Sequence record: MW679410.1
DNA from: Escherichia phage C6
DNA: 64,000 nucleotides
Strand: one strand, 5' to 3'
Made by a program: the position numbers and the translations under genes. Below, one piece after another: positions 8,486 through 49,181 of this stretch (positions are counted from its first letter, which is position 1; each line of letters begins with the position of its first letter). Under the pieces are notes generated by a model, which had not been told where the DNA came from, did not search any database, and saw only the letters and a list, made by a program, of their open reading frames with translations.

Positions 8486-8772
8486 TTAACGTACCTCATA
8501 AGGTCACGGATTTGGCCGACGGTGTAGTCTTCAATATAAACCGAAGAGATATTGTCGTCCATCAGTTTTTGTACAGCAATAAAATCGTATTCAATCTCTT
8601 TAAGTGAATGCAAGACCTTATGAGCCTTGCCACGGATATTGGTATCGTCTTGGTTGACCTTAATAATATATTCTGTTTCAAATTTCAACTTATAGAATTG
8701 GTCTTTAGTTACTTTAATCATATTTTCCTCAAACGTAATAAGCATCGGTACGAGCACGAGTAATACTAACAT
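8482..8772 (-). CDS. hypothetical protein (96 aa)
   Basis: ORF between dexA and dda. Confidence 0.55.
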   Translation of the reverse strand: MLVLLVLVPMLITFEENMIKVTKDQFYKLKFETEYIIKVNQDDTNIRGKAHKVLHSLKEIEYDFIAVQKLMDDNISSVYIEDYTVGQIRDLMRYVK

Positions 8773-10060
8773 AAGCTAGCTGTGAAGCTAAACTCACATC
8801 AGCCATATGCATACACGGCGTATAGATGAAACTGTTCTGGACTGTGAGGCCCTGCGATTTATGAACGGTGCTCACAGGAAGAGCTCGAACCTTAGTAAAC
8901 ATTCTCTTAGCTTTCCAAAAATCAGCCCACTTAGGTTTCTTACCCGTTCCACGCATGGCTTTGTATTCAGTAGCAACCTTAGCCAAGAAATAATGGAACT
9001 TCTCAACTGAAGCCTCATCGATAACCTTTAAATGCTCTACATAGTACTCGTCGTCTTCATCGATAGATTCTACTTGCAGGTCCCAGTAATTAATCATTTG
9101 TCGAGTGCCTACATCCTTAGCAGACAAGAACAATGAGGTGTGGTTCACATCCAGAATACGAACCATTTGGCCGTTATTAAAAATGGTTTCGGAGAATTTC
9201 TTACCGTCGTATTCAAGTTCCTTCATAAAAGGCTCTTGCATTACCAGGATTTCGCCCTTGATATAAGGTGCATCGGTTTCATAAAGCTTTTTACGAATAA
9301 TGCTATTCAGCTTTTCAACCGATTTATTTGTATAAGCAAACATCCTATTCTCAAACAAGGCATCAGCGTCTTTTACGATGGAAAAATAATTCATCATAAA
9401 ATCTTTTAAAGCAGTTTGAGATTTAAAACCATGGACACCATGTCCTTCGAATACACAATCTCTAAACCAACCGCCATTACGGATTTCAGTAGCCACCTCA
9501 ATGATAGGAGCATTACTACGCATTACTTCAGTCAAATGCAATTGCTTGATTTTTGGATGAGTAAAGAATGGAGACAACTGCGGACTACCATCACTTCCAG
9601 GTTCCACTGGCTGTAGCTGAGCTCTGTCGCCAATCCCTAATACAGTACACCATGGTGGCACGGAAGATTCAATAATCTTAAACAGCTTACCGTCAATCAT
9701 CGAGCCTTCATCAACAACTAGCACATTACATTTGCTCAAGTCAGGAGCTTCGCGTTGTTCAAAGATGTCCTGGTCTTCGTATGTAGTAGGGTTAATCTTT
9801 AGAATTCTGTGGATTGTTGATGCTTCTTGACCTGCGAGTTTCGACAACACCTTTTTGGCCGCATGGGTAGGTGCAGTCAAAATAACTCCGAGTTCACCAT
9901 TCTTGACTAGATGGTCAAGAATAAATTTGGTAAGGGTTGTTTTACCCGTACCAGCAGGGCCGTTCAATGTAATCCATTCGCCCTTACGTCGTTTAATAGC
10001 TTCAATGATTTCTTTAAAAGCCGTCCTCTGGCCGATGTTCAAGTCTTCAAATGTAATCAT
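8729..10060 (-). CDS. dda: Dda DNA helicase (SF1B)
   Basis: 443 aa; Walker A GPAGTGKTT; near-colinear with T4 Dda as I recall it. Confidence 0.9.
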   Translation of the reverse strand: MITFEDLNIGQRTAFKEIIEAIKRRKGEWITLNGPAGTGKTTLTKFILDHLVKNGELGVILTAPTHAAKKVLSKLAGQEASTIHRILKINPTTYEDQDIFEQREAPDLSKCNVLVVDEGSMIDGKLFKIIESSVPPWCTVLGIGDRAQLQPVEPGSDGSPQLSPFFTHPKIKQLHLTEVMRSNAPIIEVATEIRNGGWFRDCVFEGHGVHGFKSQTALKDFMMNYFSIVKDADALFENRMFAYTNKSVEKLNSIIRKKLYETDAPYIKGEILVMQEPFMKELEYDGKKFSETIFNNGQMVRILDVNHTSLFLSAKDVGTRQMINYWDLQVESIDEDDEYYVEHLKVIDEASVEKFHYFLAKVATEYKAMRGTGKKPKWADFWKAKRMFTKVRALPVSTVHKSQGLTVQNSFIYTPCMHMADVSLASQLAYVSITRARTDAYYV

Positions 10061-13784: not shown

Positions 13785-14101
13785 TAATCACACGAGCCGG
13801 ACGATGAGCCACAGCTTCCTGAGTCAGAATAAGACGAATCACCGGTCCATGAACTAACGGCAGCCGCAACCATAATAGGAGTGGTATCAATATGGCTTGT
13901 GCGACGAGCTTCTAGATGTTCTTTAAACTTTTTAGAATTCAAAGGAAGAGCGCCTGGCCCCACATTACCAGCTTTTTCAGGTTGACGGATAACTTCTTCC
14001 ATCATACCGTCGCCCACATAAACATATTCCTTCGGACCTGAGATAGGAACCACCCCTTCGCCGGGTTTGGTCTTGAAAAAATTCTTAAGCCAACGAATCA
14101 T
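13784..14101 (-). CDS. hypothetical protein (105 aa) with Ser/Gly/Cys-rich C-terminal tail
   Basis: ORF; C-terminus GDSSYSDSGSCGSSSGSCD. Confidence 0.55.
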   Translation of the reverse strand: MIRWLKNFFKTKPGEGVVPISGPKEYVYVGDGMMEEVIRQPEKAGNVGPGALPLNSKKFKEHLEARRTSHIDTTPIMVAAAVSSWTGDSSYSDSGSCGSSSGSCD

Positions 14102-14343
14102 AGGAAACCTCGTTTAAATTCAACTTTATCGATATCATCAGTCTCGTGACGGATTTCGGCATTAAATTCGATAGAACCGTCTTCATGCATCATAAATGAA
14201 TGGACAATAACTTCGGTATACCAAGGAGTATAAAAGTACTTTTTCAATACGTGGTTAGCGATAATTTCATCCAAAGTTTTATTAGGTTTAATCCAACGAT
14301 TTAACATAGTGTTCTCCTCTATAAGGTAAGACCATCTTAACAC
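14098..14343 (-). CDS. hypothetical protein (81 aa)
   Basis: ORF. Confidence 0.55.
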   Translation of the reverse strand: MLRWSYLIEENTMLNRWIKPNKTLDEIIANHVLKKYFYTPWYTEVIVHSFMMHEDGSIEFNAEIRHETDDIDKVEFKRGFL

Positions 14344-14377
14344 AACCTTCCTAGAAAGTAAACCCTTAAAACGAAAA

Positions 14378-14397
14378 AAGGAACCCGAAGGTTCCTT
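14378..14397 (-). terminator. stem-loop terminator downstream of soc
   Basis: Minus-strand hairpin AAGGAACC-UUCG-GGUUCCUU followed by a U-run. Confidence 0.65.
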
Positions 14398-14401
14398 ATA
14401 A

Positions 14402-14635
14402 TTAAACTACTGGGGTAGGCGTGAACATTGCTGCGTTCTTGGTCTTCCAGTCAGCAGCATCAGTCACTACGGTTGAGTAGGCCGCAACGGCTGAAGGGAA
14501 AGTCTGATAATGAGAGTCTGCAATACGGTGCTCGTTTGAATAAATCTCAAACGGGACCGAAACCTCAGTACCTTTAACTTCTTTGCCTTCACCGGCTGGA
14601 TGTGTAAAGGTTTTGATATTAACGAAACCACCCAT
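14402..14635 (-). CDS. soc: small outer capsid protein Soc
   Basis: 77 aa; GFVNIKTF...HYQTFPS..AAYSTV matches my recollection of T4 Soc; preceded by late promoter. Confidence 0.8.
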   Translation of the reverse strand: MGGFVNIKTFTHPAGEGKEVKGTEVSVPFEIYSNEHRIADSHYQTFPSAVAAYSTVVTDAADWKTKNAAMFTPTPVV

Positions 14636-14666
14636 AATTAACTCCTTTGTTGTTTAATTACAGGTG

Positions 14667-14674
14667 TATTTATA
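14667..14674 (-). promoter_or_regulatory. T4-type late promoter TATAAATA for soc
   Basis: Exact TATAAATA on the minus strand about 30 nt upstream of the soc ATG. Confidence 0.6.
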
Positions 14675-14676
14675 AC

Positions 14677-15198
14677 TTAATAACCTCGGTCTTGACGAGC
14701 AAAGTTCTCAGCATTTTTCAGGTAATACAACTTAAAGATTTCTTCAGCAGTCAGACCAAGACCTTGGAACATATTCAGAACAAAGTGCAGAATATCAATC
14801 ATCTCGAATTTAATTTCAAGCTGGTCTTCAGGAGAGAGTTCGTCAATACGACGGTTACGGAATTCACCGTGCTGAGCTTTCCAAGGCTTCCAGACGCTAG
14901 ATGCGGCTTTCTCACCATTACTCATGCCACCAAGAGAAGTCAACAGTTCACGGAATTCGTCATCAATATAATCTTTCTGGTTGCGAAGCCAATCGACAAC
15001 TTGACCTGCAGTAGCCAGTTCATCGGGGTTAGAGTTAAATTCAGATTTTTCAGTAGCCAAACGGACCTGTAATGATTTCTGCATATCAAGCATAACCTGC
15101 AGAGGGTCTTTATCTTCGTGAATCAAAGCATTAAAATAAGCTTCCTCAGCTTTATCAACACCAGCAATAAGTTGTGAGCATTCGTTAAAGTGTGCCAT
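14677..15198 (-). CDS. 56: dCTP pyrophosphatase gp56 (MazG-like)
   Basis: 173 aa; position and size match T4 gp56. Confidence 0.8.
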   Translation of the reverse strand: MAHFNECSQLIAGVDKAEEAYFNALIHEDKDPLQVMLDMQKSLQVRLATEKSEFNSNPDELATAGQVVDWLRNQKDYIDDEFRELLTSLGGMSNGEKAASSVWKPWKAQHGEFRNRRIDELSPEDQLEIKFEMIDILHFVLNMFQGLGLTAEEIFKLYYLKNAENFARQDRGY

Positions 15199-18877: not shown

Positions 18878-18895
18878 AAGGAGCCGAGGCTCCTT
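18878..18895 (-). terminator. stem-loop terminator after gene 41
   Basis: Minus-strand hairpin AAGGAGCC-UCGG-CUCCUU followed by UUUUUUGUUUUU. Confidence 0.65.
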
Positions 18896-20333
18896 AAAAT
18901 TTGATAGATGCTGCTAAATCGTCCAAATCACTTCTATTAACACGCGTCTGTCGATTGACCTCGGCTTGACGATTCATCTCACCTGTAGCCTCACGAACAG
19001 TGTTCACTGGGCCTGGGTTGGAATCGTCTTCAACTTCGTACCAACGTTGATTTCCTTTCTTAACACCAATCTTAAATTTGTTGTAGTAGCTCTTATCACC
19101 ATAACGAGATTTAAGCTGCTTAACCATCTGCATACCCATCTGAGCAAACTCTTCTGTCTCGACCACACCTAACATGAAGTCTGCAGTATGTGCAATACCA
19201 AAGGATTCGGCAATATCAGCCATATCGATTTCGGCTGCAACGTTCGCACCACGAGTAGTCTGGGCCGCAGTCCACAACAGTAATTTCTTCTCTACTGCCA
19301 GTCCACGTAGTTCTTCGGCTACCATCTTAATCAATCCGTAACTGTTTTCAGAGAAAACTTTCGTACGAGACGATGCACAGATAGCCAAGTAGTCGACGAT
19401 AACGACCTGTGGGACAAAGTTTTGTTTGAGCTTATATTCGTTTAATAATGCACGGAAGGTATCGGCATTAGCACCACCGGTAGGATACTGTTTAATCTTT
19501 AAACGACCTAAGGTAGCAGTTGAACGCCATTTATCCATCTTAGCTTTATATTCAGGCCAAGAGACATGGCCATCATCGATATCGTCTAGTGATACATCCA
19601 GAAGGTTTGCATCGATACGCTTAGCACATACTTCCTCTGCCATCTCCATGGAGATATAAAGAACATCGTATCCGGATTGAAGGTAATCAGCAGCCAATGA
19701 ACACAGACCAAGAGACTTACCTACGTTTGTTCCTGCCAACAATACGTTTTCAGTACCAAACTCAGCACCACCTTTAGTAATCTTATTCAGAATATTAAGA
19801 CGGAACGGGACCTTACGTGCTTTATCGGAATAACTTTTGAATCGTTCTTCGTAGTCATCCATCCAGTCATGACCTAATTCAGAATCGAAACAAATCGATA
19901 ATGCATCACGCATGATATCTGGAATAGCACCAATACCTGGAAGTTTTCTATTTTGTTGCTCAACCGGAAGGTCGGCATTAGTTTGGATTTCAATGATTTT
20001 TGAAGTTGCATTATACATCGCTGCTTTCTGAACGTATTTCTCCGTCTCTTTAACCAACCATTCTTGGTCTTCAGGTCCAGCATTCAGTGAGCTTAAAAGC
20101 TCTTTAGCTCCTTGATGTTCGACTTCTGAAAGCGTGCTGTTATCTAATGCAATGCTCAATGCGTTCTTAGAAGGCACTGCATTATATTCATTGACGTGTT
20201 TTTTAATTTCTTTGAAAAGGGTCTTTGCAGGACCCTGGTCAAAATAAGAATCATTCATATAAGGCCAGACCTTAGTGAAATAATCACTATTGCCTAGCAG
20301 TTGAGCCAAAATAGTTTCTACCACTTCCACCAC
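18894..20333 (-). CDS. 41: replicative DNA helicase gp41 (DnaB-like)
   Basis: 479 aa; Walker A GTNVGKSLG; RecA-like C-terminal domain. Confidence 0.9.
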   Translation of the reverse strand: MVEVVETILAQLLGNSDYFTKVWPYMNDSYFDQGPAKTLFKEIKKHVNEYNAVPSKNALSIALDNSTLSEVEHQGAKELLSSLNAGPEDQEWLVKETEKYVQKAAMYNATSKIIEIQTNADLPVEQQNRKLPGIGAIPDIMRDALSICFDSELGHDWMDDYEERFKSYSDKARKVPFRLNILNKITKGGAEFGTENVLLAGTNVGKSLGLCSLAADYLQSGYDVLYISMEMAEEVCAKRIDANLLDVSLDDIDDGHVSWPEYKAKMDKWRSTATLGRLKIKQYPTGGANADTFRALLNEYKLKQNFVPQVVIVDYLAICASSRTKVFSENSYGLIKMVAEELRGLAVEKKLLLWTAAQTTRGANVAAEIDMADIAESFGIAHTADFMLGVVETEEFAQMGMQMVKQLKSRYGDKSYYNKFKIGVKKGNQRWYEVEDDSNPGPVNTVREATGEMNRQAEVNRQTRVNRSDLDDLAASIKF

Positions 20334-20647
20334 CTCTTAGATTTAATTTTATCCAGTTCTTCTTGTATTTGCATTGTAACACATTTTTCTACATGAAGCG
20401 CTAGCTCTTCTTTTCGGTCTTCGGAAGGTGTTCCGAAATCAACCGACACTTTTCCATCTTTCTCAATAACAATATTCATCACATAAACGATGTGAGCAGT
20501 GCCATCGGGTAAAGTAAGCATAATTTCCTGCTTAACAGAACCCATTGACTTACGGATTATATCTAATGATTTCTCATAATAACGAGGGTCACTAGGACCC
20601 TCTTCGGCATCTTTAACAAAATTATCTAAATCAGATAAATCAGTCAT
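20318..20647 (-). CDS. 40: gp40-position protein (109 aa)
   Basis: Between 41 and uvsX as in T4; identity by synteny only. Confidence 0.5.
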   Translation of the reverse strand: MTDLSDLDNFVKDAEEGPSDPRYYEKSLDIIRKSMGSVKQEIMLTLPDGTAHIVYVMNIVIEKDGKVSVDFGTPSEDRKEELALHVEKCVTMQIQEELDKIKSKRWWKW

Positions 20648-21821
20648 GGTCGCTCACAAAATTCATGTTTTCTAAATCGCTTTCGATGTCAGCAGCGCTT
20701 TGGGTATTTCCACCTAATTTAACAGCAACGTTCTTAGAGACACGAGAGTTAATAAGGTCGTTCACTGCATCGTCAACTTCTTTAATAGAATTAATTGCAC
20801 CAAGCTTATACTTATTCTCGATTGCTTCACGGAACGGAGCGTGTTTAAACAGCGGTCCCCAGAACTCAACACAATCGGTAGCTTTAGCACGCCATGCTTT
20901 TTCTTCTTGAACCATTTCACCCGTGGTTTCGTCAAGGAATGCACGATTATACCAACCAGCTTTAGGTTTCACTACAAAGCCGATATCAGTAGCCATTTCA
21001 AGCAATCCACTGAACGGGTCGATACCGCCTTCAAAGTTAACGGTGATAGGGAACGTTGACTTCTCTTTAACCGTACGAGATTTCTCAGCCTTCAGTGTGA
21101 AGTCATAACCGGTGAGCTCAGTACCATCTTTAACCTGGCGTTTAGAGATAAAGAATACGGTAGACGCAGAATAAAGAATACCAGTACCACCACCCATAAT
21201 CTCTTTAGGATACATTCCACCAATTTCCATAGCCGTGTGGTTAATTGCTACACAAGGGATATCTTTGATGGTCAGATAAGGTGTTACGATACGGAACAGA
21301 GATTTCAGTGACTTAGCACGAGTCATATCACCTACAACTTTCTCGTTCAAAGCATCTTCGGTTTCTTTCTTAGAAGCAGTGTTACCAATGGAGTCGATAA
21401 AGATAATAACCTTTTCGCCACGAGTAATTTCTTCTAACTGGTTAGTCATATCAACTTTAAGCTGTTCGACTGACTGGATTGGTGTATGAACCACACGTTC
21501 CAAATCAACACCCATCGAACGGAAATAAGATTCTGAAGCACCAAACTCAGAGTCATAGAACAAACAAATTGCGTCTGGATATTTCTTCATATATGCCGCA
21601 ACCATGGTAAGTCCAAACAACGTTTTAAAGTGTTTAGATGGAGCAGCAAAGATTGTCAAACCTGATTGTAAGCCTGCATTCAACGCACCACCTAATGCAA
21701 TATTCAGCATAGGGATACGAGTAGGAACTTCGTCACGACCATTAAACAATTTAGATTTGGTCAGGTCGGCAGTCATTTTAGAAGTAGAAGCTTTAATCAA
21801 ACGGGATTTTAAATCAGACAT
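20640..21821 (-). CDS. uvsX: UvsX recombinase (RecA/Rad51 family)
   Basis: 393 aa; RecA-fold ATPase; T4 UvsX length. Confidence 0.9.
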   Translation of the reverse strand: MSDLKSRLIKASTSKMTADLTKSKLFNGRDEVPTRIPMLNIALGGALNAGLQSGLTIFAAPSKHFKTLFGLTMVAAYMKKYPDAICLFYDSEFGASESYFRSMGVDLERVVHTPIQSVEQLKVDMTNQLEEITRGEKVIIFIDSIGNTASKKETEDALNEKVVGDMTRAKSLKSLFRIVTPYLTIKDIPCVAINHTAMEIGGMYPKEIMGGGTGILYSASTVFFISKRQVKDGTELTGYDFTLKAEKSRTVKEKSTFPITVNFEGGIDPFSGLLEMATDIGFVVKPKAGWYNRAFLDETTGEMVQEEKAWRAKATDCVEFWGPLFKHAPFREAIENKYKLGAINSIKEVDDAVNDLINSRVSKNVAVKLGGNTQSAADIESDLENMNFVSDHD

Positions 21822-21898
21822 TATATTTTTCCATAGGCATCATTATATTTTACTCACGTTTTAAGATAGGGTAATTATATCACTTCATATTTACAGCG

Positions 21899-22792
21899 TT
21901 AAAGGACCACGTCCTCATAACTTGGCATTTCGTGCTCAGAATGGATATGGGCACCGAAATAAATGAATTCAGCTAGACCAGGATGGAATACTAAATCAGG
22001 ATTCTCATGATAAATGATATGGGGTCTTGATTTCAGAATCTGATAATATTCAACCTTACTCGGTTTGAATTTAATAATCTCTACATCAGGGCGATAGTCT
22101 TCACGCTTAAATGAATCATTCGGATCGGTGATGTAAAGACGAGCACCTTCAGCCGCGGCTTGGTCTACAACTCTTTCGAATTGATAACATTTATCTGAGA
22201 TACGGAATGGATGGAAAATACCATCAATTTTAATAGGCGCTAGACCTTCAGAGTAACGCTCAATTACTGCCGGATTAATTACCTTTTGGTCTACAAAAAT
22301 CTTATCAGAGGATGCACCTCGTGACACCAGGACGTCTTTCTGGCATTGATTCAGGACTGTAGTATAAATCGAACGTTCAACTGAAGACACGTCGATATCA
22401 ATGAACTCATCAATATAATAACGAGGAACTTCAGGGTCCATTGTAATGTTAAAGTTGAATTGTACAGTCTGAGCACCATCATAACCTGTGATATCGGTTA
22501 CCAATCCTGAGCAGTCATAGTATTCGATTAACGAATCAACAACGAACTCATTTTCAGACCAAAAATGTTTACGAGTTTCATAAGCATTTTCTTTATACCA
22601 GAGTGGTACAAAATTCAGTTCAGGAAATAATTCAATGCATTCTTTGATATCGCTCGAATTTCTAGGATAAGCCAGATAATCACCTGGGCAAGCACGGTTT
22701 AAATGGAGTTGAAAATTGCCGTCCTTAAGGACGGCATATTCACCTGTTTCGTAACTACGCATACTGAAAATAGGAACGATAAACAAACTCAT
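21899..22792 (-). CDS. hypothetical protein (297 aa) occupying the T4 beta-glucosyltransferase locus; candidate DNA-modifying transferase
   Basis: ORF between uvsX and gene 42, where T4 has beta-gt; no similarity by eye to T4 beta-gt; function inferred from position only. Confidence 0.65.
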   Translation of the reverse strand: MSLFIVPIFSMRSYETGEYAVLKDGNFQLHLNRACPGDYLAYPRNSSDIKECIELFPELNFVPLWYKENAYETRKHFWSENEFVVDSLIEYYDCSGLVTDITGYDGAQTVQFNFNITMDPEVPRYYIDEFIDIDVSSVERSIYTTVLNQCQKDVLVSRGASSDKIFVDQKVINPAVIERYSEGLAPIKIDGIFHPFRISDKCYQFERVVDQAAAEGARLYITDPNDSFKREDYRPDVEIIKFKPSKVEYYQILKSRPHIIYHENPDLVFHPGLAEFIYFGAHIHSEHEMPSYEDVVL

Positions 22793-23487
22793 TTCAGGAA
22801 TCCTCGAACGTAGTCAAAATCACGTTCAAATACGTGTGCACTAACCATAGTATGGGAATACGTGCCCAGACCAACACCACACTGTTCAGCAATAAAGGCC
22901 ATCAGTTTACCCTGCAGATAGAAATCCAGCTGCATAACGATAGCACAGTTCTGTGAACGCATATGAGTGTGTGCATACAGACGTCCATCACGAATATAAT
23001 ATGTTACCGAATCGGTACATGGATATTCTAGGGATTCGTCAGAATCAAGGAGGGCTTGGTCTTGTTCTTGGAGAATTTGGAACACAACTCTTCGCGAGTT
23101 AGGCTTTTCTTTAAGCTCTTTAAGTAAGGCTGGGAGTTGGGCCACAATTCGAGGTCCATAGAAAGTGTTGAAGTTTGCAGGCAATACGTCACTTTTCGGC
23201 TTATCAATGAACTTAGCAACATTAGGATATTCCTTAAATGCTTCGGCGGCATCAGTACCACCAGAAATCATAAATTTCCAGAAAGATTCGGCATAATCAT
23301 AGTTGATACGATTAATGCGGGGATCGGTGAATTTGTAAGTGCTTGCATCCAGAACTTCAACTGAAGCCGAACCAATTTCATAACAACGACCGATACGAGA
23401 ATCAACTGCAAACTGTGGAGCTTCCAGGATTTCTTCGTTCATTTGCTTAAACGCGTTTTCAAAACTAACAGCGGTAATGTGTTTCAT
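22789..23487 (-). CDS. 42: dCMP hydroxymethylase-like enzyme (thymidylate synthase fold)
   Basis: 232 aa; TS-family motifs NSRRVVFQ, catalytic-Cys context YPCTDSV, MRSQN...QLD with Asp at the cytosine-specifying position; diverged from T4 gp42. Confidence 0.75.
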   Translation of the reverse strand: MKHITAVSFENAFKQMNEEILEAPQFAVDSRIGRCYEIGSASVEVLDASTYKFTDPRINRINYDYAESFWKFMISGGTDAAEAFKEYPNVAKFIDKPKSDVLPANFNTFYGPRIVAQLPALLKELKEKPNSRRVVFQILQEQDQALLDSDESLEYPCTDSVTYYIRDGRLYAHTHMRSQNCAIVMQLDFYLQGKLMAFIAEQCGVGLGTYSHTMVSAHVFERDFDYVRGFLK

Positions 23488-24020
23488 TTATTCACCTTAT
23501 TTTCAATATATTCATTCAGACGTTTTAATTCTACCATATCGACGTTAAGCAAGTTATTATGACCGTCATGGTTTAAAACTTTAAAAACATTTTTAAAACA
23601 GTCTTCATATTTCTGGATAGTTAGGTTGAACTCATCTTTGGTCAATTTAATAAGGTCATCTTCGAAGTCTTCATCCAATGGATTACGGGTTAAAATAACC
23701 TCAATAATATTGAATTCAGATTTAAACCCTTTCCAATCTTCCAATTCTACATAAGGGTCCATTTCACCGCGAAGGAATCCAGAGTAAACAATATTACTAG
23801 GATATCCACGGTCTAAGATGTAGACAAAATTAGGGTCTAAAAACTTATATAAGGTTTCGACTAAAGCCTTATCATTATCAGTCCCTATTGAAATGCACTT
23901 ACCATTAATCTTTTTAGGAAAATCAATAAGACGATATTTCTTATCAGACAAAAGTGATTCAATTAAAGTAGACTTCCCGGAATTATCCGGGCCGTCGATA
24001 ACAATGATTTTTGGTTTCAC
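23484..24020 (-). CDS. thymidylate-kinase-like dNMP kinase (P-loop)
   Basis: 178 aa; Walker A GPDNSGKST and DRGY motif resembling the TMK DRY motif. Confidence 0.65.
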   Translation of the reverse strand: MKPKIIVIDGPDNSGKSTLIESLLSDKKYRLIDFPKKINGKCISIGTDNDKALVETLYKFLDPNFVYILDRGYPSNIVYSGFLRGEMDPYVELEDWKGFKSEFNIIEVILTRNPLDEDFEDDLIKLTKDEFNLTIQKYEDCFKNVFKVLNHDGHNNLLNVDMVELKRLNEYIENKVNK

Positions 24021-24415
24021 GGATGATATGCCTTATAGGTTTCAAGAGTTCCTTCACGAACCATTTCTTTAAAGTGGTCAGGACGGATTGCTCGGTCATC
24101 GATGATAAAAGTATAACTCGGCTTATGTGTAAGCAGATTATGATATTTCAATCCAATCTTTTCAAGGTTCTTAACCAATGCAGGAACTACTTCAACCAAG
24201 ATTCGACCAGGTCCACATGAAGTCATGCCACGAGCAGTGAACAGCGTAATCTCATAACCTTCGTCATAAAGCTTATTAATCATGGACACCATTTCGGTGT
24301 CCGGTTTAAAGTTTTCGTAATCACGGTCATGGTTCCAAACCGTGATTGTATTATCGATGTCAAAACATAAATGGGGCTTATTTTCTACTCGATGCGACAT
24401 TAAATTTTCTTCCAT
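24017..24415 (-). CDS. small HAD-superfamily phosphatase
   Basis: 132 aa; motif I DIDNTIT (DxDxT). Confidence 0.65.
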   Translation of the reverse strand: MEENLMSHRVENKPHLCFDIDNTITVWNHDRDYENFKPDTEMVSMINKLYDEGYEITLFTARGMTSCGPGRILVEVVPALVKNLEKIGLKYHNLLTHKPSYTFIIDDRAIRPDHFKEMVREGTLETYKAYHP

Positions 24416-26073
24416 TGTTTGTGGAGTTCAGTAGAACCTGTAGGTTTATATTTTACACCAGTTTCTTGGTCAAGCAAAACCCACTTATCAGGACAACGAG
24501 TGATAATTTGGGCCGTGATAGGGTCACGAACTTCATCGACGAATTCACCTGTAATAAGCTTACGCTTGCGAGGATGCCGCTTCAGCAGCACACTCAGTTG
24601 ATATAAACCATTGTAATAAGCACCCAGAGCTTTCAGAGGGTTATTTTTAAAGTAACCTGCCAATGCCATCCAGATAACAGCAATCCAGAGCTTGTGCTTA
24701 AATGTACACATTGGAATATCATCTAAAGGCATAACCTTTTCAATATCAACGAATACACGAGTTCCGTTACGAGTTAAGCCACCCCATAGAGGGTCAGAGT
24801 TAAATTTGTCATACCCATCGATAGAATAAAGCACCTTAGCTTCATCATAAATCGCAGGGCCTTTAGAACTATTACCAAAATAACCACGTGGGTCGATGAT
24901 TTTAATATCACCTTCGTCCGACAACATAATATTACTGTAGTGCGGGTCACCGTGAATAAGTTGGTACGGTTCTTTATGTTCAGACAGAATTTCTAAGGCG
25001 TGGCGAAGAAGTTTTTCAGGGTCGCCTACCTTAAAGTCATTGACATGGGTAATACCCTGTGGAGCAAAGCCTTCAATCAATCCAGCAATAGAAGCATTAC
25101 GAATAAGGACCTTGTCCAATACTTCTTTCTTAACATCGGAATACCATTGCTCATCGGATGGATTATCGATAGTCCCACCGAATGAACGTAATGCACTAAT
25201 AACCTTATAAACCATGAGGACTTTAGTTTCTTTAGACATGAACCGATAGGCATCTGCCATAGTACGACCAAAGATACGTTCCATTTTAATGAATTCACCT
25301 GGAGCAAAGTCTACAATGCTCGGAACGAATTCAGAATCAATAGAATTATACCAATTGATTTCTTTAGATTGGATTTCTTTACCTAATTCGTTGGTAGGTA
25401 CTTTAATAGCCAGATTCTCAGTGAACTCTAATTTATTAAATTCACGGTTAATTTCGGATTCTTCATGGGCCTTAGCCAGTTTCAGTTTGTCACCGACATC
25501 AACTACAAAGTCTAGCTTACGTTCGGTCAAATGGACCATTGAATCCAGGTTGTCGGCAAGGTCTTCACCATAATTAGAGCGGTTGAAACCTGTCCAATTA
25601 GCCACCTGATACAAACCAACCACACCGCCACCGGTACCAATTTCACGCAGGTACGGTTCTTCAAATGTAAAACGACAGTCAGTCCCGTAGGTATAACAGT
25701 AGTCGTTATCCCACTCAACTTTATGACCCTCAGGAATGATGTCACACCAGTTAAACAGGACATTGTGCCCGATAATATCTTCAGCAATGCAATCAATAGC
25801 ATGAGCTGAACCATTGGCGACATCTACGTTACGAATAGTGAATTTAGGCTTATCACTATTAATCATGTTAATGGATTTAATGTAACCCTTAACGAGGTCA
25901 TTAAATTTGCTGTGAATAACCAGAATAATTTCATCTGATTGATTACTATACAAATCATACAAATGTTTTAATACAGTATGTTGTTTGTAGTTAACCAGTA
26001 CCTTCGGGATTTCGTTAGTAATTGGATACAACCGTGAGCCAAGACCCGCGCCTAAAATAACAACCTTTTTCAT
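24400..26073 (-). CDS. bifunctional sugar-1-phosphate nucleotidyltransferase (N-terminal) and APH/choline-kinase-like sugar kinase (C-terminal)
   Basis: Start moved to MKKVVILGAGLGSRLYPIT (GxGxR NTP-transferase motif; GAGGA SD); C-terminal HGDPHYSNIML...DIKIIDPRG is the catalytic loop of the APH/ChoK/MtnK kinase family. Confidence 0.8.
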   Translation of the reverse strand: MKKVVILGAGLGSRLYPITNEIPKVLVNYKQHTVLKHLYDLYSNQSDEIILVIHSKFNDLVKGYIKSINMINSDKPKFTIRNVDVANGSAHAIDCIAEDIIGHNVLFNWCDIIPEGHKVEWDNDYCYTYGTDCRFTFEEPYLREIGTGGGVVGLYQVANWTGFNRSNYGEDLADNLDSMVHLTERKLDFVVDVGDKLKLAKAHEESEINREFNKLEFTENLAIKVPTNELGKEIQSKEINWYNSIDSEFVPSIVDFAPGEFIKMERIFGRTMADAYRFMSKETKVLMVYKVISALRSFGGTIDNPSDEQWYSDVKKEVLDKVLIRNASIAGLIEGFAPQGITHVNDFKVGDPEKLLRHALEILSEHKEPYQLIHGDPHYSNIMLSDEGDIKIIDPRGYFGNSSKGPAIYDEAKVLYSIDGYDKFNSDPLWGGLTRNGTRVFVDIEKVMPLDDIPMCTFKHKLWIAVIWMALAGYFKNNPLKALGAYYNGLYQLSVLLKRHPRKRKLITGEFVDEVRDPITAQIITRCPDKWVLLDQETGVKYKPTGSTELHKQWKKI

Positions 26074-26133
26074 TATCTGTTCCTCAAGTGAATGTAGGTA
26101 CATTATACACTATTTTTAATAAATTGGTATTGC

Positions 26134-26634
26134 TTAAATCTTATCTTTACCGATTTCAATACACTGTTCTATTGCCGCCGGTACTTTGGTCTTGAGCTTA
26201 TTGATTTGTTTCTTATAATCACGGGCCTTATCAAAGCTTTCGGTTTCGAGCATTTCGTAATAACGAGCCTCATGGATGGAAATCTGTAGATTGATATGAT
26301 TTACGCACATCGCATACAGTTTCTGTTTTTTGTACAAATCGTCTTGACGCTTCATTTCTGCCTGGTGTTTGGCTAGTACCGCTTCACGCTTGGACTCTTG
26401 TTCACGTTGGAATTCAATTTCCCTTTGAGCATATTTTGCACAGTTATTACCGCATTGATTATTAGCTCGGGTATACACAAGTCCAGAACCTGCACGGAAT
26501 TTCATTTCGCCATCGAATTGTTTCTGTTCAGCTGCGATACGAGCTTTACCAACTTCATCAGCCGAAACTGCATCACCATATTGGACCGCGCAACCTGATA
26601 GGAGCATACTCATTGCGATAATTAACTTTTTCAT
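26134..26634 (-). CDS. putative lipoprotein (166 aa)
   Basis: Signal peptide with lipobox LLSGCA; coiled-coil-like remainder. Confidence 0.65.
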   Translation of the reverse strand: MKKLIIAMSMLLSGCAVQYGDAVSADEVGKARIAAEQKQFDGEMKFRAGSGLVYTRANNQCGNNCAKYAQREIEFQREQESKREAVLAKHQAEMKRQDDLYKKQKLYAMCVNHINLQISIHEARYYEMLETESFDKARDYKKQINKLKTKVPAAIEQCIEIGKDKI

Positions 26635-26641
26635 AATATCC

Positions 26642-26779
26642 TCAATTAAAACAGTTATACTTAATTTGTGCTATAAGAATAATCCATCCAATGATGAGTG
26701 TCGGAATCATTGGCGGAATTACCACTGCCCAATAAATGGTAAAGGCAGTCATTATAAGAAATAAAATAATTATTTTCAT
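26642..26779 (-). CDS. small membrane peptide (45 aa)
   Basis: Hand-translated MKIIILFLIMTAFTIYWAVVIPP...; ATGA overlap with imm stop. Confidence 0.4.
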   Translation of the reverse strand: MKIIILFLIMTAFTIYWAVVIPPMIPTLIIGWIILIAQIKYNCFN

Positions 26780-27012
26780 TGCTTAACAATAATGATTTGT
26801 GCGTTTGATTTACGTTCAGCGACGATGGCCCAGATTAAAGCCACTACCCAACCAATCATCGTCCAGCCTAACAGGAGATTAAGGAAGAAAATTCCTACAT
26901 TACTACGAGTGCCTCGCAGAAGAGCCAGAATCCATGGTAAAAAGTAACCGATGAACATAATAACCAGAGAACCGAATCCTAAAACACCAGCACTAACGAT
27001 TAAAGCTTCCAT
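26776..27012 (-). CDS. imm: superinfection immunity membrane protein Imm-like
   Basis: 78 aa; two TM helices; motif LLGWTMIGWVVALIWA; position just upstream of gene 43 as in T4. Confidence 0.65.
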   Translation of the reverse strand: MEALIVSAGVLGFGSLVIMFIGYFLPWILALLRGTRSNVGIFFLNLLLGWTMIGWVVALIWAIVAERKSNAQIIIVKQ

Positions 27013-27042
27013 TGTAATTTCCTCATGTAGTTGATAGGAAGG

Positions 27043-27072
27043 ATACTACCACGTTCCATGTGGTATGTAAAC
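27043..27072 (-). promoter_or_regulatory. T4-type early promoter cassette
   Basis: Minus strand GTTTAC-N18-TAGTAT plus CTATCAAC leader. Confidence 0.55.
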
Positions 27073-27074
27073 AC

Positions 27075-29786
27075 TTAAAAGTCGAACATGTCAAATAATG
27101 TTGCTTTTTTCTCGTAGTCGATTTTAGCGGACTCGGTAAAACCAGTCAGAGGCTTGATAAAGGTCTTTTGGAACAGTACGTTGTAGTCCATCCAACGGAG
27201 GACTTGGTCACGAATCTGAACCGGGAGTTCAATACCTGACGGCCATGCCATACAAGCTTCACCGAATGGGTTGCCTTCTTTAAGTGGCAGAACATACACC
27301 TTTTCACCATCAACGATACGAGGCATAGTCAAATCACCTGCAGAAGCACGCATGTAAGCTAAGCAACCTTTGATGTGGTATGGGCATTTAGAACCAGGGA
27401 ATCCGCCTTCATTATATTTCTCGATGTTGTTAGCACTGGATACTGCTGCAATGCTTACATAGTTTAGTTCGTTAAATTCCTTATTAAACTGTTTGAAATA
27501 TTCTTGCAAAGAAGCCTCGCCTTCCTGAAGCATACGACGGATACATTCCTTCAGAGCTTTCTGAACTGCTTTAGGTGTACTTGATTTCTGAGTTTCAAGG
27601 CCCATGATTTTCAAGTGTGGTTCGGCATAACGAGTACCTTCCATGTCCCAAACGTTCAGTGCATAACGTTTCTTGCCTGTCCAGAATCCGCCAAGACCTT
27701 TAGAACCAAGTGGAGGACCAGCAATAGCTTCTCGGTCCATGAACATCAAATGTTGTTTGTTGTTCATATACTCGCACATCTCACGGAAGCCTGCATCAAT
27801 AGCAGGTTCCATACGTTCGCGTGCAAATTTATCTAAGAAGTCGACCCAATGGTTAGTATCACGGAATTTATCTTCGCCTACTTTATTGATGATTGCATCT
27901 GCCTTAACATAAATGGAGTCAGTATCACCATAGAGCACGAACTTCTGATTTTCAGTCTTACACACGCTATTCAGATATTCGTTAACCTTACGTTCAATCC
28001 ATTGGAGGGCCATTTGACCAAACAGTGTGATTGCAGTTGCGTTCCTGAGGTCGTAGTAACGGAACCATACGTTACCAAGTGCACCATAAAGGGAGTTGAT
28101 AAGTAACTTACGGTTAATCTGAGCCGTGTTACCTGCAACTTCAGTGAGCTCGGCTTTCTTCAACATTTCTCTTAAAGAAGGTGCTGACAGTGTTTTAATC
28201 TTGGCTTTGATTTCGTCAGAGAAGTCAAAACGATAATCTATATCCAGTGGACTATCAACCGAGAGATTAGGATTTTCTAATGCTTCTTTAATTAACTCAC
28301 CATTACGTTGAGCTGCAAGCATGTAACCTTTATGTTCTTTACGTTGTAAGAACACCTTAGTGATTTCTGTCGGAATCACACCTTCACGGTCTTTATAGTA
28401 CATCATGCCGTTAGGAGAGCAACTGTAGGTATCGCTAGGACGCTGAGCAGTTCCGGCAATATATTCATGTATCGGTGCGTTAGCGAATGTCCCTGCGATG
28501 GTCTCTGGGCTTATATTCACTTGTCGAATGATACTCGGATACAGAGATGTAAGGTCGAAACTCATTACATATTTGTATGCGTTAGGAATAGGTTCCTTAA
28601 CGAAAGCGCCAGGATAAGGTTGGACCACGTGTGAACGAGCTTGTGGAATGACCTTGCCTTGTTCTTTAAGGCTATTAAAGATAATAGCGTCCCAAGTCTT
28701 AATTGGACTGAACACCGATTGAATCTGCATCTTAGCATAATAACCCATGTCCAAACTCAGAAGAATGAACTGGCGTTTCATATCAATCTGCACTACACGA
28801 TATACGTCGATAATGTTATAGGAAATATATCGTTGGTGGTTAGTCTCACGTAACTTGGAGATTGGACCATCATATTTCAACTTACCTACTTTCAATTCAT
28901 ATTCAGAAACATAATCCAGGGAATAAGAAGGCTGGTTGGTAAAGCTGAATTTTTTATACAGGTCAATATAATCTAGAACAGAGATACCGAACAAAGTAAT
29001 GATTTCACGAGCACCGTACATGTTCTCGATAACTTTAACACGAGTTTTACGATGTGGGCTTAATCGCTTAGCAGTGTTCTCACCGAACAGATTTTTCAGA
29101 CGGTTATAAACGTATGGTACGTCAAACGACTCAACGTTCCATCCAGTCAAAATCACAGGAGTTTTCTGTTGCCAGAAATTCAGATACTCAAGCATCATTT
29201 CTTCTTCAGAATTAAACGGAAGATAAACGATTTTGTCAATGATTTCTTGTGGAACTTCGTCACCACCTTCGTCTTGGAGTTTCTCAGCGATTTTAATCGA
29301 CCACTCTTCAACAGTACCATAAGGCGAAACTAAAAGGTCGAATACATAGAATTTATCGTCAATCGAGTCGTAGTGGGTAATAGCATCGATAGGGTGTTTA
29401 GCCTGAGCTGGTTCAGGGAATCCATCAGGAGATGTTACCTCGATGTCGAAGTTAGCAATACGAATCTTAGAAGAATCATATTTGATTTCTTTACGATAGG
29501 TATCGGACAAATAGGCTAATTTATAGTCGTCCATACCTAGGGCTTCGAGACCCATATCGTCCATACGTTTCATCCATTGGGATGCATCACGCATAGAATC
29601 GAATTCTTTCTTAACACAACCCTTACCATAGATATCAATGTATTTTACAGCTTGCTCTGGGTTAGCATGCATAAACATTGTAGGCTTGTAAGGAACTTCA
29701 CGACTACGTTCTTTGCCATTTTTATCGATGTAACGTTCGAGAATATTATCACCGATTTGTTCGACTGTCAAATAGAATTCTTGCAT
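27075..29786 (-). CDS. 43: DNA polymerase gp43 (family B)
   Basis: Start set at MQEFYLTVEQ (903 aa); exo and pol motifs (FDIEV, YGDTDS); near-identical in places to RB69 gp43 as I remember it. Confidence 0.95.
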   Translation of the reverse strand: MQEFYLTVEQIGDNILERYIDKNGKERSREVPYKPTMFMHANPEQAVKYIDIYGKGCVKKEFDSMRDASQWMKRMDDMGLEALGMDDYKLAYLSDTYRKEIKYDSSKIRIANFDIEVTSPDGFPEPAQAKHPIDAITHYDSIDDKFYVFDLLVSPYGTVEEWSIKIAEKLQDEGGDEVPQEIIDKIVYLPFNSEEEMMLEYLNFWQQKTPVILTGWNVESFDVPYVYNRLKNLFGENTAKRLSPHRKTRVKVIENMYGAREIITLFGISVLDYIDLYKKFSFTNQPSYSLDYVSEYELKVGKLKYDGPISKLRETNHQRYISYNIIDVYRVVQIDMKRQFILLSLDMGYYAKMQIQSVFSPIKTWDAIIFNSLKEQGKVIPQARSHVVQPYPGAFVKEPIPNAYKYVMSFDLTSLYPSIIRQVNISPETIAGTFANAPIHEYIAGTAQRPSDTYSCSPNGMMYYKDREGVIPTEITKVFLQRKEHKGYMLAAQRNGELIKEALENPNLSVDSPLDIDYRFDFSDEIKAKIKTLSAPSLREMLKKAELTEVAGNTAQINRKLLINSLYGALGNVWFRYYDLRNATAITLFGQMALQWIERKVNEYLNSVCKTENQKFVLYGDTDSIYVKADAIINKVGEDKFRDTNHWVDFLDKFARERMEPAIDAGFREMCEYMNNKQHLMFMDREAIAGPPLGSKGLGGFWTGKKRYALNVWDMEGTRYAEPHLKIMGLETQKSSTPKAVQKALKECIRRMLQEGEASLQEYFKQFNKEFNELNYVSIAAVSSANNIEKYNEGGFPGSKCPYHIKGCLAYMRASAGDLTMPRIVDGEKVYVLPLKEGNPFGEACMAWPSGIELPVQIRDQVLRWMDYNVLFQKTFIKPLTGFTESAKIDYEKKATLFDMFDF

Positions 29787-29845
29787 TTCATTTCCTTTAT
29801 AGACGAGTGATTGTCTTTTGTTTGTTGATGAATCATTATACTCCA

Positions 29846-29865
29846 AAAGGGACCGAAGTCCCTTT
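29846..29865 (-). other. RNA stem-loop with UUCG tetraloop between regA-distal ORF and gene 43
   Basis: Minus-strand AAAGGGAC-UUCG-GUCCCUUU; no strong U-run; terminator or stability/processing element. Confidence 0.4.
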
Positions 29866-48134: not shown

Positions 48135-49115
48135 TTATTTCAGAAGGGTAACTTCAGCGATTTCGTTCCAGTCATTTTTATCGGTGGCAATGAAGTCCGC
48201 CAGATAAAGAGCTGTACGTAATGATACGTTACGAAGACGAGATACATTAGCCTTCATCCATGCTAAAGCTTGATAAGTCTCAGCATCAGTCAGACCTCGA
48301 TTTTGCATCATATCAGTGGACAGGATAACGTCTTCAACACGAACCATAATCTCTTCGTTAGAGTGAACTCCGAGGTCTAAGTAAACTGAACGAGATACTA
48401 AAGCCTGGAGGTGTGGAGCAAGTTTAGTTCCACGCTCTAATTCACGGTCGATATCAACGTTGGTGATGAACACGATGGTGCCTTCGTATTCGAATTCTTT
48501 ATCGATGTTTTTGTCATCGAGATAAGAACTTGAAGTGCTCCAGCACACCTTACGTTTTTCACCGGTATCCAATGCTGCTTTTAACAGGTTCAGGATATCC
48601 ATATCAGAGAATACATCAACATCATCGATAAGAAGAACACTATTAGGGCCGCGGTTATTCCAAAGCTGCTCGTAAAGACCGATTCCACTAATCTTTCCGT
48701 TGATTGATTTATATTCGATAGTTTCATTTTCGTGGGCATTCTGTAATGCTTTATCCAAAGAATACGTTTTACCAATACCTGCGGCACCAGAGATGATAAG
48801 GGAACGAATTTTACCATCGATGATTCCGTTAGTCATCATGTTCATTACTTTAAAACGTTTGTTGATGCGATGTTTCATTTCTTCAGAGGATTCAGTAACA
48901 ACTGCAGGAGCTTCAGCACCTTCCATTTCAACGTCACATTTGAACACCCATACACCACGTTCAACACCATCAATCTGTACGAATACCTTGCCATCACCGA
49001 GGTGAGCTTCGGATTCATGAATTTTATTAGGGAACCAGGTTTTACCTGAACTCATGAACGTACCAGAGATTTCATTACCGCGATAGATACCTTTGTTGAT
49101 TTTGATAGTTAACAT
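48135..49115 (-). CDS. AAA-type P-loop ATPase
   Basis: Start set at MLTIKINKG with GGAG SD; Walker A GAAGIGKT; Walker B-like LLIDDVD. Confidence 0.7.
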   Translation of the reverse strand: MLTIKINKGIYRGNEISGTFMSSGKTWFPNKIHESEAHLGDGKVFVQIDGVERGVWVFKCDVEMEGAEAPAVVTESSEEMKHRINKRFKVMNMMTNGIIDGKIRSLIISGAAGIGKTYSLDKALQNAHENETIEYKSINGKISGIGLYEQLWNNRGPNSVLLIDDVDVFSDMDILNLLKAALDTGEKRKVCWSTSSSYLDDKNIDKEFEYEGTIVFITNVDIDRELERGTKLAPHLQALVSRSVYLDLGVHSNEEIMVRVEDVILSTDMMQNRGLTDAETYQALAWMKANVSRLRNVSLRTALYLADFIATDKNDWNEIAEVTLLK

Positions 49116-49152
49116 TATATTCTCCATTTCACTCAGTAGATTTGATAGGTCC

Positions 49153-49181
49153 ATAATAACATGCTCTACGAGGTTGTAAAC
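49153..49181 (-). promoter_or_regulatory. T4-type early promoter cassette
   Basis: Minus strand GTTTAC-N17-TATTAT; divergent from the plus-strand late promoter. Confidence 0.55.

Follow-up and report, generated by a model that had tools for sequence, protein, structure and literature searches.

We report that five overlapping genes in a 64,000-nt stretch of Escherichia phage C6 (MW679410.1; hereafter the window, to which all positions refer) very probably encode the phage arabinosyl-5-hydroxycytosine pathway in its Dhakavirus version. We favour this reading because all five products are one-to-one orthologues of the pathway proteins of phage RB69, the predicted base-modifying enzyme carries a diagnostic D169N signature, the catalytic motifs are intact, and the genes share synteny with Klebsiella phage EI and genomic position with RB69. 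The pathway was published in 2025-2026 with Dhakaviruses named as carriers, and is not a new system. An earlier sequence-only reading of this stretch had treated the assignment of these enzymes to their chemistry as unestablished, a view that those publications supersede.

The module consists of five minus-strand open reading frames (ORFs) at 21899-26103, and the ORF listing returns the same coordinates as the sequence-only reading. The genes are named here by their predicted families: GT-B glycosyltransferase fold, thymidylate synthase (TS), thymidylate kinase (TMK), HAD, and nucleotidyltransferase (NTase).

21899-22792, minus strand: GT-B protein, 297 aa
22789-23487, minus strand: TS homologue, 232 aa
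23484-24020, minus strand: TMK-fold kinase, 178 aa, GTG start
24017-24415, minus strand: predicted HAD phosphatase, 132 aa from the first start
24400-26103, minus strand: NTase and kinase fusion, 567 aa from the first ATG

Successive genes overlap by 16, 4, 4 and 4 nt in order of transcription, which suggests one translationally coupled operon. Each gene has full-length homologues in many phage genera, with E values from 1e-30 to 1e-200, and these are thus real genes and not chance ORFs. The T4 record gives the order uvsX-segA-b-gt-42-imm-imm.1-43 for the same slot. Together with the ORF listing it confirms that the five ORFs replace beta-gt and gene 42 between uvsX and imm/43.

The published work defines the chemistry. 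In the DNA of RB69 and of Acinetobacter phage DLP3, arabinofuranose is ether-bonded directly to cytosine C5, that is, it sits on 5-hydroxycytosine (5hoC) (Lee et al. NAR 2026, PMC13326640). A 2018 paper had proposed arabinosyl-5-hydroxymethylcytosine (arabinosyl-hmC) for RB69 (PMC6024577). That assignment was corrected by Lee et al. (PMC13326640) and by an independent report on one Mosigvirus, which detected both 5-ara-dC and 5-ara-ara-dC and called hmC an error (PMC13390438). The modified nucleotide, 5-hydroxy-dCMP (5hodCMP), is made by the TS homologue RB69 gp48, a flavin-binding protein that uses O2 according to 18O2 labelling. Both gp48 and the enzyme of phage HY126 were shown to yield 5-hydroxy-dCMP, with 18O2 incorporation and bound flavin mononucleotide (PMC13326640). 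The diagnostic of a 5hodCMP synthase is D169N (E. coli ThyA numbering) added to C146, N177D and L143D/E, and this signature was validated on nine further D169N homologues (PMC13326640). In the same study the deoxynucleoside monophosphate (dNMP) kinase gp1 of RB69 phosphorylates 5hodCMP, RB69p028 is listed in Table 1 as the pathway dCTPase, and the number of arabinoses follows the number of transferases (Thanatos 1, RB69 2, DLP3 3). Dhakaviruses are among eleven further groups listed there with a syntenic cluster (PMC13326640). The sugar-donor route is credited in PMC13326640 to He et al. 2026 and Mahler et al. Cell Host Microbe 2025. As summarized there, AfhE is a bifunctional enzyme, both a kinase of arabinose-5-phosphate and a UDP-arabinose pyrophosphorylase (He et al. 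Nat Chem Biol 2026), the Mg-dependent phosphatase AfhF converts arabinofuranose-1,5-bisphosphate to the 1-phosphate, and an arabinose-5-phosphate isomerase feeds the route from ribulose-5-phosphate.

Local BLAST of the window proteins against the RB69 and HY126 loci matched all five one-to-one with RB69 gp45, gp46:47, gp48, gp51 and gp52:53 and with the HY126 cluster, at the following identities.

297-aa protein: RB69 gp47 plus gp46, 64-69%; HY126 299-aa protein, 66% over the full length
232-aa protein: RB69 gp48 and the HY126 enzyme, 79%
178-aa protein: RB69 gp45, 37%
132-aa protein: RB69 gp51, 63%; HY126 AfhF, 64%
567-aa protein: RB69 gp53 plus gp52, 41-44%; HY126 AfhE, 43% over the full length

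The window has one intact ORF for the 297-aa protein where the RB69 record has gp46 and gp47, a split that Lee et al. ascribe to a sequencing error (PMC13326640). Klebsiella phage EI (Marfavirus) carries the same gene set in the same order at 68-87% identity, and Shewanella phage Thanatos carries the same set in a different order at 41-71%. The position of the module between uvsX and gene 43 is shared with RB69. Orthology to the RB69/HY126 cluster thus upholds the proposal of a cytosine hypermodification module, and the suspected link to RB69-type arabinosylation is borne out by all five proteins.

We examined which base the TS homologue would make. The 232-aa protein matches Pfam Thymidylat_synt (4.8e-14), and the PDB sequence search places it with entries 9iqu/9iqc/9ir2 (E about 1e-125), with 1b5e-type entries matching at only E about 5e-06. 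The PDB matches of this protein and of the HAD protein share an accession series with an entry titled 'phage HY126 glycosyltransferase'. Its identity is 79% over 231 aa to RB69 gp48 and the HY126 enzyme and 87% to the phage EI protein, and only 25% over 159 aa to T4 gp42. When aligned with E. coli ThyA, T4 gp42, RB69 gp48 and the HY126 enzyme, the window protein keeps C146 of ThyA and shows L143 to E, N177 to D and D169 to N. The corresponding motifs are YPC at 155-157 (in EYPC), RSQN at 177-180 and QLD at 186-188; T4 gp42 reads RSND, retaining Asp169. The window protein therefore carries the published 5hodCMP synthase signature and, with Asn at 169 and its distance from gp42, does not have the features of a gp42-type hydroxymethylase. 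Because of this signature and the 79% identity to proven 5hodCMP synthases, we assign it as a predicted flavin/O2-dependent dCMP C5 hydroxylase (5-hydroxy-dCMP synthase), not a hydroxymethylase. The hydroxymethyl-dC chemistry of the sequence-only reading is accordingly replaced by 5-hydroxy chemistry. A diverged dCMP hydroxymethylase, with the module building arabinosyl-hmC in a T4-like manner with another sugar, would agree with membership of the TS superfamily, with the N177D change and the acidic residue 143 that the protein shares with T4 gp42, with the 'dCMP hydroxymethylase' label of orthologues in several records, and with the 2018 report of arabinosyl-hmC in RB69 (PMC6024577). We consider it extremely improbable, since D169N is present here and not in gp42, the protein is 79% identical to enzymes yielding 5-hydroxy-dC vs 25% to gp42, and the RB69 assignment has been explicitly corrected (PMC13326640; PMC13390438).

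The sugar donor would be made by the fusion protein and the HAD enzyme. The fusion protein matches Pfam NTP_transferase (2.4e-08, residues 13-110) and APH (1e-05, residues 356-427), both passing the gathering score. Its NTase signature GxGxGSRLxPxT...PK reads GAGLGSRLYPITNEIPK at 18-34, and its kinase motifs are HGDPHYSN at 384-391 (HGDxxxxN) and IIDPRG at 402-407. It is 80% identical to the phage EI protein and 72% to those of Providencia phages, with which it forms its own branch. The ATG at 26073 is preceded by a GAGGA Shine-Dalgarno sequence, and alignments with RB69, HY126 and PHROG all start at residue 11; the true start is therefore probably this ATG, giving the 557-aa product already proposed by the sequence-only reading. 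By these features the fusion is a predicted AfhE orthologue, with an N-terminal UDP-arabinofuranose pyrophosphorylase and a C-terminal APH/choline-kinase-like arabinose-5-phosphate 1-kinase. Likewise, the HAD protein is predicted to be the AfhF orthologue, an arabinofuranose-1,5-bisphosphate 5-phosphatase. It matches PDB 9iqw (134 aa) at E 3.9e-55 and 1xpj at E 2.7e-12, is 86% identical to its EI counterpart, and carries DIDNT at 19-23 (the DxDxT nucleophile), TAR at 60-62 and FIIDD at 103-107; Pfam gave no match for this 132-aa protein. The RefSeq/PHROG label 'phosphoheptose isomerase' is a misnomer, given AfhF orthology and the HAD motifs. The HAD gene may instead start at an ATG at 24400 that shares a base with the upstream TAA (TAATG), which would give 127 aa. 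The NTase, kinase, HAD and P-loop proteins all retain their catalytic motifs. The nucleoside diphosphate-sugar route proposed earlier stands as regards donor synthesis by NTase, kinase and HAD enzymes. Its starting point, a free or dephosphorylated sugar, does not: the published order, as summarized in PMC13326640, is 1-kinase, then 5-phosphatase, then NTase.

The 297-aa protein gave no match in Pfam and PDB sequence searches. Fold prediction shows a GT-B fold, and the protein is 51% identical to Thanatos TH1_063. Fold and orthology model it as a GT-B glycosyltransferase, the counterpart of RB69 gp46:47, DLP3 gp79 and Thanatos TH1_063, and we propose from fold and synteny that it acts as the first (base-proximal) arabinosyltransferase. 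By tblastn the window holds no homologue of T4 alpha-gt or beta-gt, as had been noted before. The earlier family guesses (TS, TMK-like, HAD, NTase plus APH, GT-like) hold by Pfam, PDB, PHROG and fold searches.

The 178-aa protein has a P-loop and the TMK fold, with the motif DRG and not DRY/H/F, and no match to Pfam Thymidylate_kin. It is a TMK-fold P-loop kinase, orthologous to RB69 gp45 and DLP3 gp78. A gene for it is present in every locus inspected, and RB69 and AnYang (a Dhakavirus) also have the gp1 dNMP kinase. Its putative substrate is most likely a 5-substituted dCMP (5-hydroxy-dCMP); dTMP is unlikely as the main substrate because td and gp1 are already encoded in the phage lineage. 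The first arabinose could also be added before replication, with the 297-aa enzyme glycosylating 5-hydroxy-dCMP, the TMK-fold kinase phosphorylating arabinosyl-5hodCMP and the polymerase using the glycosylated dNTP. We regard this as unlikely. If true, the five-gene, single-transferase Dhakavirus module would be the minimal form of a pre-replicative glycosylation route.

The window gp43 is 99.4% identical to that of AnYang, 83.6% to that of RB69 and 61% to that of T4. By these values the genome is assigned to Dhakavirus, RB69-related but another genus, and a placement as RB69-like Mosigvirus is ruled out. At the nucleotide level the window is about 96% identical to AnYang, IME08 and Bp7. The module block is 95-97% identical in 51 full-length phage records (megablast), including AnYang, IME08, Bp7, MX01, QL01 and WG01. 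We searched for the accessory genes of RB69 by tblastn in the window (E<=0.1) and in AnYang (E<=1); all of the AnYang genome except one kilobase was covered, and the matching window sequence was itself searched. Neither sequence gave a match to RB69 gp55 (the SIS arabinose-5-phosphate isomerase; DLP3 gp83), gp50 (Peptidase_U32 family), gp49 or gp3 (the second transferase). The rIIA-gene 39 interval, the site of RB69 gp3, holds only a DUF7367 ORF. The other large window ORFs without an assigned function showed no glycosyltransferase or sugar-enzyme family by Pfam and PHROGs, libraries that both also miss RB69 gp3.

The isomerase is likewise not seen beside the EI polymerase gene or in the 15.7-kb Thanatos locus. 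Because of this, and because host KdsD/GutQ can supply the substrate, it looks like an accessory and not a defining feature of the cluster. Since no phage isomerase is present, we predict that arabinose-5-phosphate comes from host KdsD/GutQ. The extra arabinosyltransferases (RB69 gp3; DLP3 gp76/77) are accessory, as Thanatos has a single glycosyltransferase. Because one transferase is detectable and transferase number follows arabinose number, the virion DNA is predicted to contain mono-arabinosyl-5-hydroxycytosine. The module is thus self-standing, as had been suggested. It is not fully self-contained, as an arabinose-5-phosphate isomerase is missing and gp1, the dNMP kinase, is located beyond the window.

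Several points weigh against the arabinosyl-5hoC assignment. The literature searched held no DNA chemistry of any Dhakavirus, and AnYang stands as a proxy for the parts of the phage beyond the window. A second transferase without detectable similarity is possible, and Pfam misses both RB69 gp3 and the 297-aa protein. The place of the TMK-fold kinase in the pathway is putative. The role of the 297-aa protein is a predicted one: single transferases were inactive on 5hoC-DNA in Lee et al. (PMC13326640), and the Thanatos orthologue TH1_063 was reported with UDP-xylose pyrophosphorylase activity in vitro (PMC12838424). Both observations would fit a GT-B protein that is a nucleotide-sugar enzyme, pyrophosphorylase- or epimerase-like, with transfer carried out by something else, as would the UDP-GlcNAc 2-epimerases among the top Foldseek matches, which have the same GT-B fold. 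We judge this very unlikely and retain the glycosyltransferase assignment.

The remaining point concerns the sugar, which we infer from a fusion only 43% identical to AfhE and in a genome where the arabinose-committing isomerase of Mosigvirus was not found. The same pathway logic could place another pentose, for example from ribose-5-phosphate or xylulose/xylose derivatives, on 5hoC in Dhakavirus and Marfavirus. In the phage collection, 367 records have a fusion homologue and 276 have the isomerase, vs no SIS isomerase in the window or AnYang; the fusion sits on a separate branch with Klebsiella and Providencia phages, and the Thanatos paper describes xylose-nucleotide activity in vitro (PMC12838424). 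However, conservation with the arabinose systems is high for the HAD protein (64%) and the transferase (66%). Moreover, enterobacteria produce arabinose-5-phosphate constitutively, through KdsD/GutQ, for the synthesis of 3-deoxy-D-manno-octulosonate (Kdo). The Thanatos locus likewise has no isomerase, yet Thanatos is mono-arabinosylated according to Lee et al. Another pentose is therefore quite unlikely, and arabinose remains our preferred sugar.

In the proposed mechanism, gp56 would first convert dCTP to dCMP, as in the T4 paradigm. The gene for this dCTPase/dUTPase lies outside the five-gene block:

14677-15198, minus strand: gp56 dCTPase/dUTPase, 94% identical to RB69 gp56 (RB69p028) over 173 aa

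The 232-aa enzyme would then convert dCMP to 5-hydroxy-dCMP with flavin and O2, the reaction shown for its 79%-identical orthologues. The gp1 dNMP kinase (outside the window), possibly with the 178-aa kinase, would carry the product to the triphosphate, which gp43 would incorporate instead of C. On the sugar side, the C-terminal kinase domain of the fusion would phosphorylate arabinose-5-phosphate, probably of host KdsD/GutQ origin, at C1. The HAD enzyme would remove the 5-phosphate to leave arabinose-1-phosphate, an activity shown for HY126 AfhF and predicted here from 64% identity and motifs. The N-terminal NTase domain would form UDP-arabinofuranose, as shown for HY126 AfhE and predicted here from 43% identity and motifs. 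Finally, the 297-aa GT-B enzyme would place arabinofuranose on the 5-OH, as its fold and synteny suggest.

We compared the module with named systems. RB69 and HY126 (Mosigvirus) have the isomerase gp55, the U32-like gp50, gp49 and, between rIIA and gene 39, gp3 as a second transferase, whereas the window has none of these. The TMK-like gene stands between the HAD and TS genes in the window and next to uvsX in RB69/HY126, and imm and a 166-aa lipoprotein-like gene adjoin the window module, unlike RB69/HY126. RB69 DNA is mono- and di-arabinosylated and that of DLP3, which has more transferases, up to tri-arabinosylated; for the window only the mono form is predicted. Outside Dhakavirus, the module is most closely related to the EI cluster, with the order fusion, HAD, TMK-like, TS, glycosyltransferase in both. 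In EI a U32-like gene separates the TMK-like gene from the TS gene; the Dhakavirus module lost it or never had it. Thanatos TH1_060-TH1_065 resembles the window in its single GT-B gene and the same five families (PMC12838424), and is mono-arabinosylated per Lee et al., the state predicted here; it differs in its U32-like gene and gene order, with identities of 41-71%. The Thanatos authors described the sugar as a (deoxy)pentose and gave the GT-fold protein pyrophosphorylase activity (PMC12838424).

T4 is alike in using the same slot, in modifying dCMP before replication with a TS-superfamily enzyme, in decorating the new hydroxyl with a GT-B enzyme that depends on a nucleotide sugar, and in the presence of gp56. 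In contrast, T4 relies on folate-dependent hydroxymethylation and host UDP-glucose, whereas the window is predicted to use flavin/O2 hydroxylation, an ether linkage directly on C5 and phage-made UDP-arabinofuranose. Rhizobium phage RL38J1 (Pootjesviridae), whose DNA has hexosylated 5-hydroxycytosine, shares with the window a D169N-type 5hodCMP synthase, a TMK-like kinase and GT-B transferases (PMC13326640 Table 1). It belongs to an unrelated phage family, and its sugars are galactose and glucose, by way of UDP-galactopyranose mutase and no kinase/phosphatase/NTase route (PMC13326640).

The U32-like protein deserves comment. RB69 gp50 (8493-9662 of the RB69 locus record) belongs to the U32-peptidase family (Pfam 7.4e-11), and the gene is 79-86% identical among RB69, EI and Thanatos, which exceeds the conservation of the other module genes' RB69 orthologues. 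The U32-family proteins TrhP, RlhA and UbiU/V carry out O2-independent C5-pyrimidine and quinone hydroxylation. By analogy, the U32-like protein might open a way to 5hoC under anaerobic conditions; in Lee et al. it is labelled 'sugar or heterocycle reductase' (PMC13326640).

The pathway determines which host defences are evaded and which are set off, namely type II and type IV restriction, GmrSD/BrxU, CRISPR and DNA glycosylases. This is of practical relevance, as Dhakaviruses are used in coliphage therapy cocktails. The reduced gene set predicts mono-arabinosyl-5hoC, dependence on host arabinose-5-phosphate and an oxygen-dependent hydroxylation step, and the module is the smallest natural gene set for reconstituting the pathway. 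The value of the window is mainly corrective, the public annotation of module genes being inconsistent. Records label the predicted hydroxylase 'thymidylate synthase' or 'dCMP hydroxymethylase' and other genes 'thymidylate kinase' or 'hypothetical', and some label at least one module gene 'RNA polymerase binding protein' or 'AAA domain-containing protein'. The AnYang record gives the kinase gene just 279 nt, but tblastn shows an intact, full-length frame there; the short form is an annotation start-site issue, not a pseudogene.

Gene 56 shows a history of its own. The window gp56 is 94% identical to that of RB69 but only 76% to that of AnYang, with flanks 94-98% identical to AnYang at the nucleotide level. 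A SegF homing endonuclease adjoins gene 56 in AnYang and is absent from the window (14100-14680). The difference looks like a homing-endonuclease-linked allele exchange, for which T4 SegF and gene 56 are a known case. Elsewhere in the window, a 339-aa ORF at 48135-49154 (minus strand) has weak matches to AAA/STAND-NTPase and HTH_37 families, all under Pfam cut-offs; its neighbours match DUF7235 and T4 y05I-like families, and the ORF is unrelated to the module.

The genes flanking the module are the following.

18894-20333: gp41
20318-20647: gp40
20640-21821: uvsX
26134-26634, minus strand: 166-aa lipoprotein-like ORF, between module and imm
26645-26752, minus strand: small ORF, between module and imm
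26776-27012: imm, Pfam Imm_superinfect 5e-18
27075-29846: gp43

A scan of 21700-27200 for sigma-70 promoters and terminators gave results no better than shuffled sequence. The two ORFs between the module and imm were omitted from the sequence-only reading. The N-terminus of the 166-aa ORF, MKKLIIAMSMLLSGC, is a lipoprotein signal with a lipobox; the protein matches PHROG 1754, a family without known function, and among the loci inspected was seen in Dhakavirus only. Given its imm neighbour, it could be a superinfection-exclusion lipoprotein. The small ORF has a homologue in RB69 ORF054, at 58% over 36 aa; the RB69 record describes ORF054 as 'similar to T4 42-imm intercistronic region', and the small ORF is a conserved remnant of the old gene 42-imm junction.

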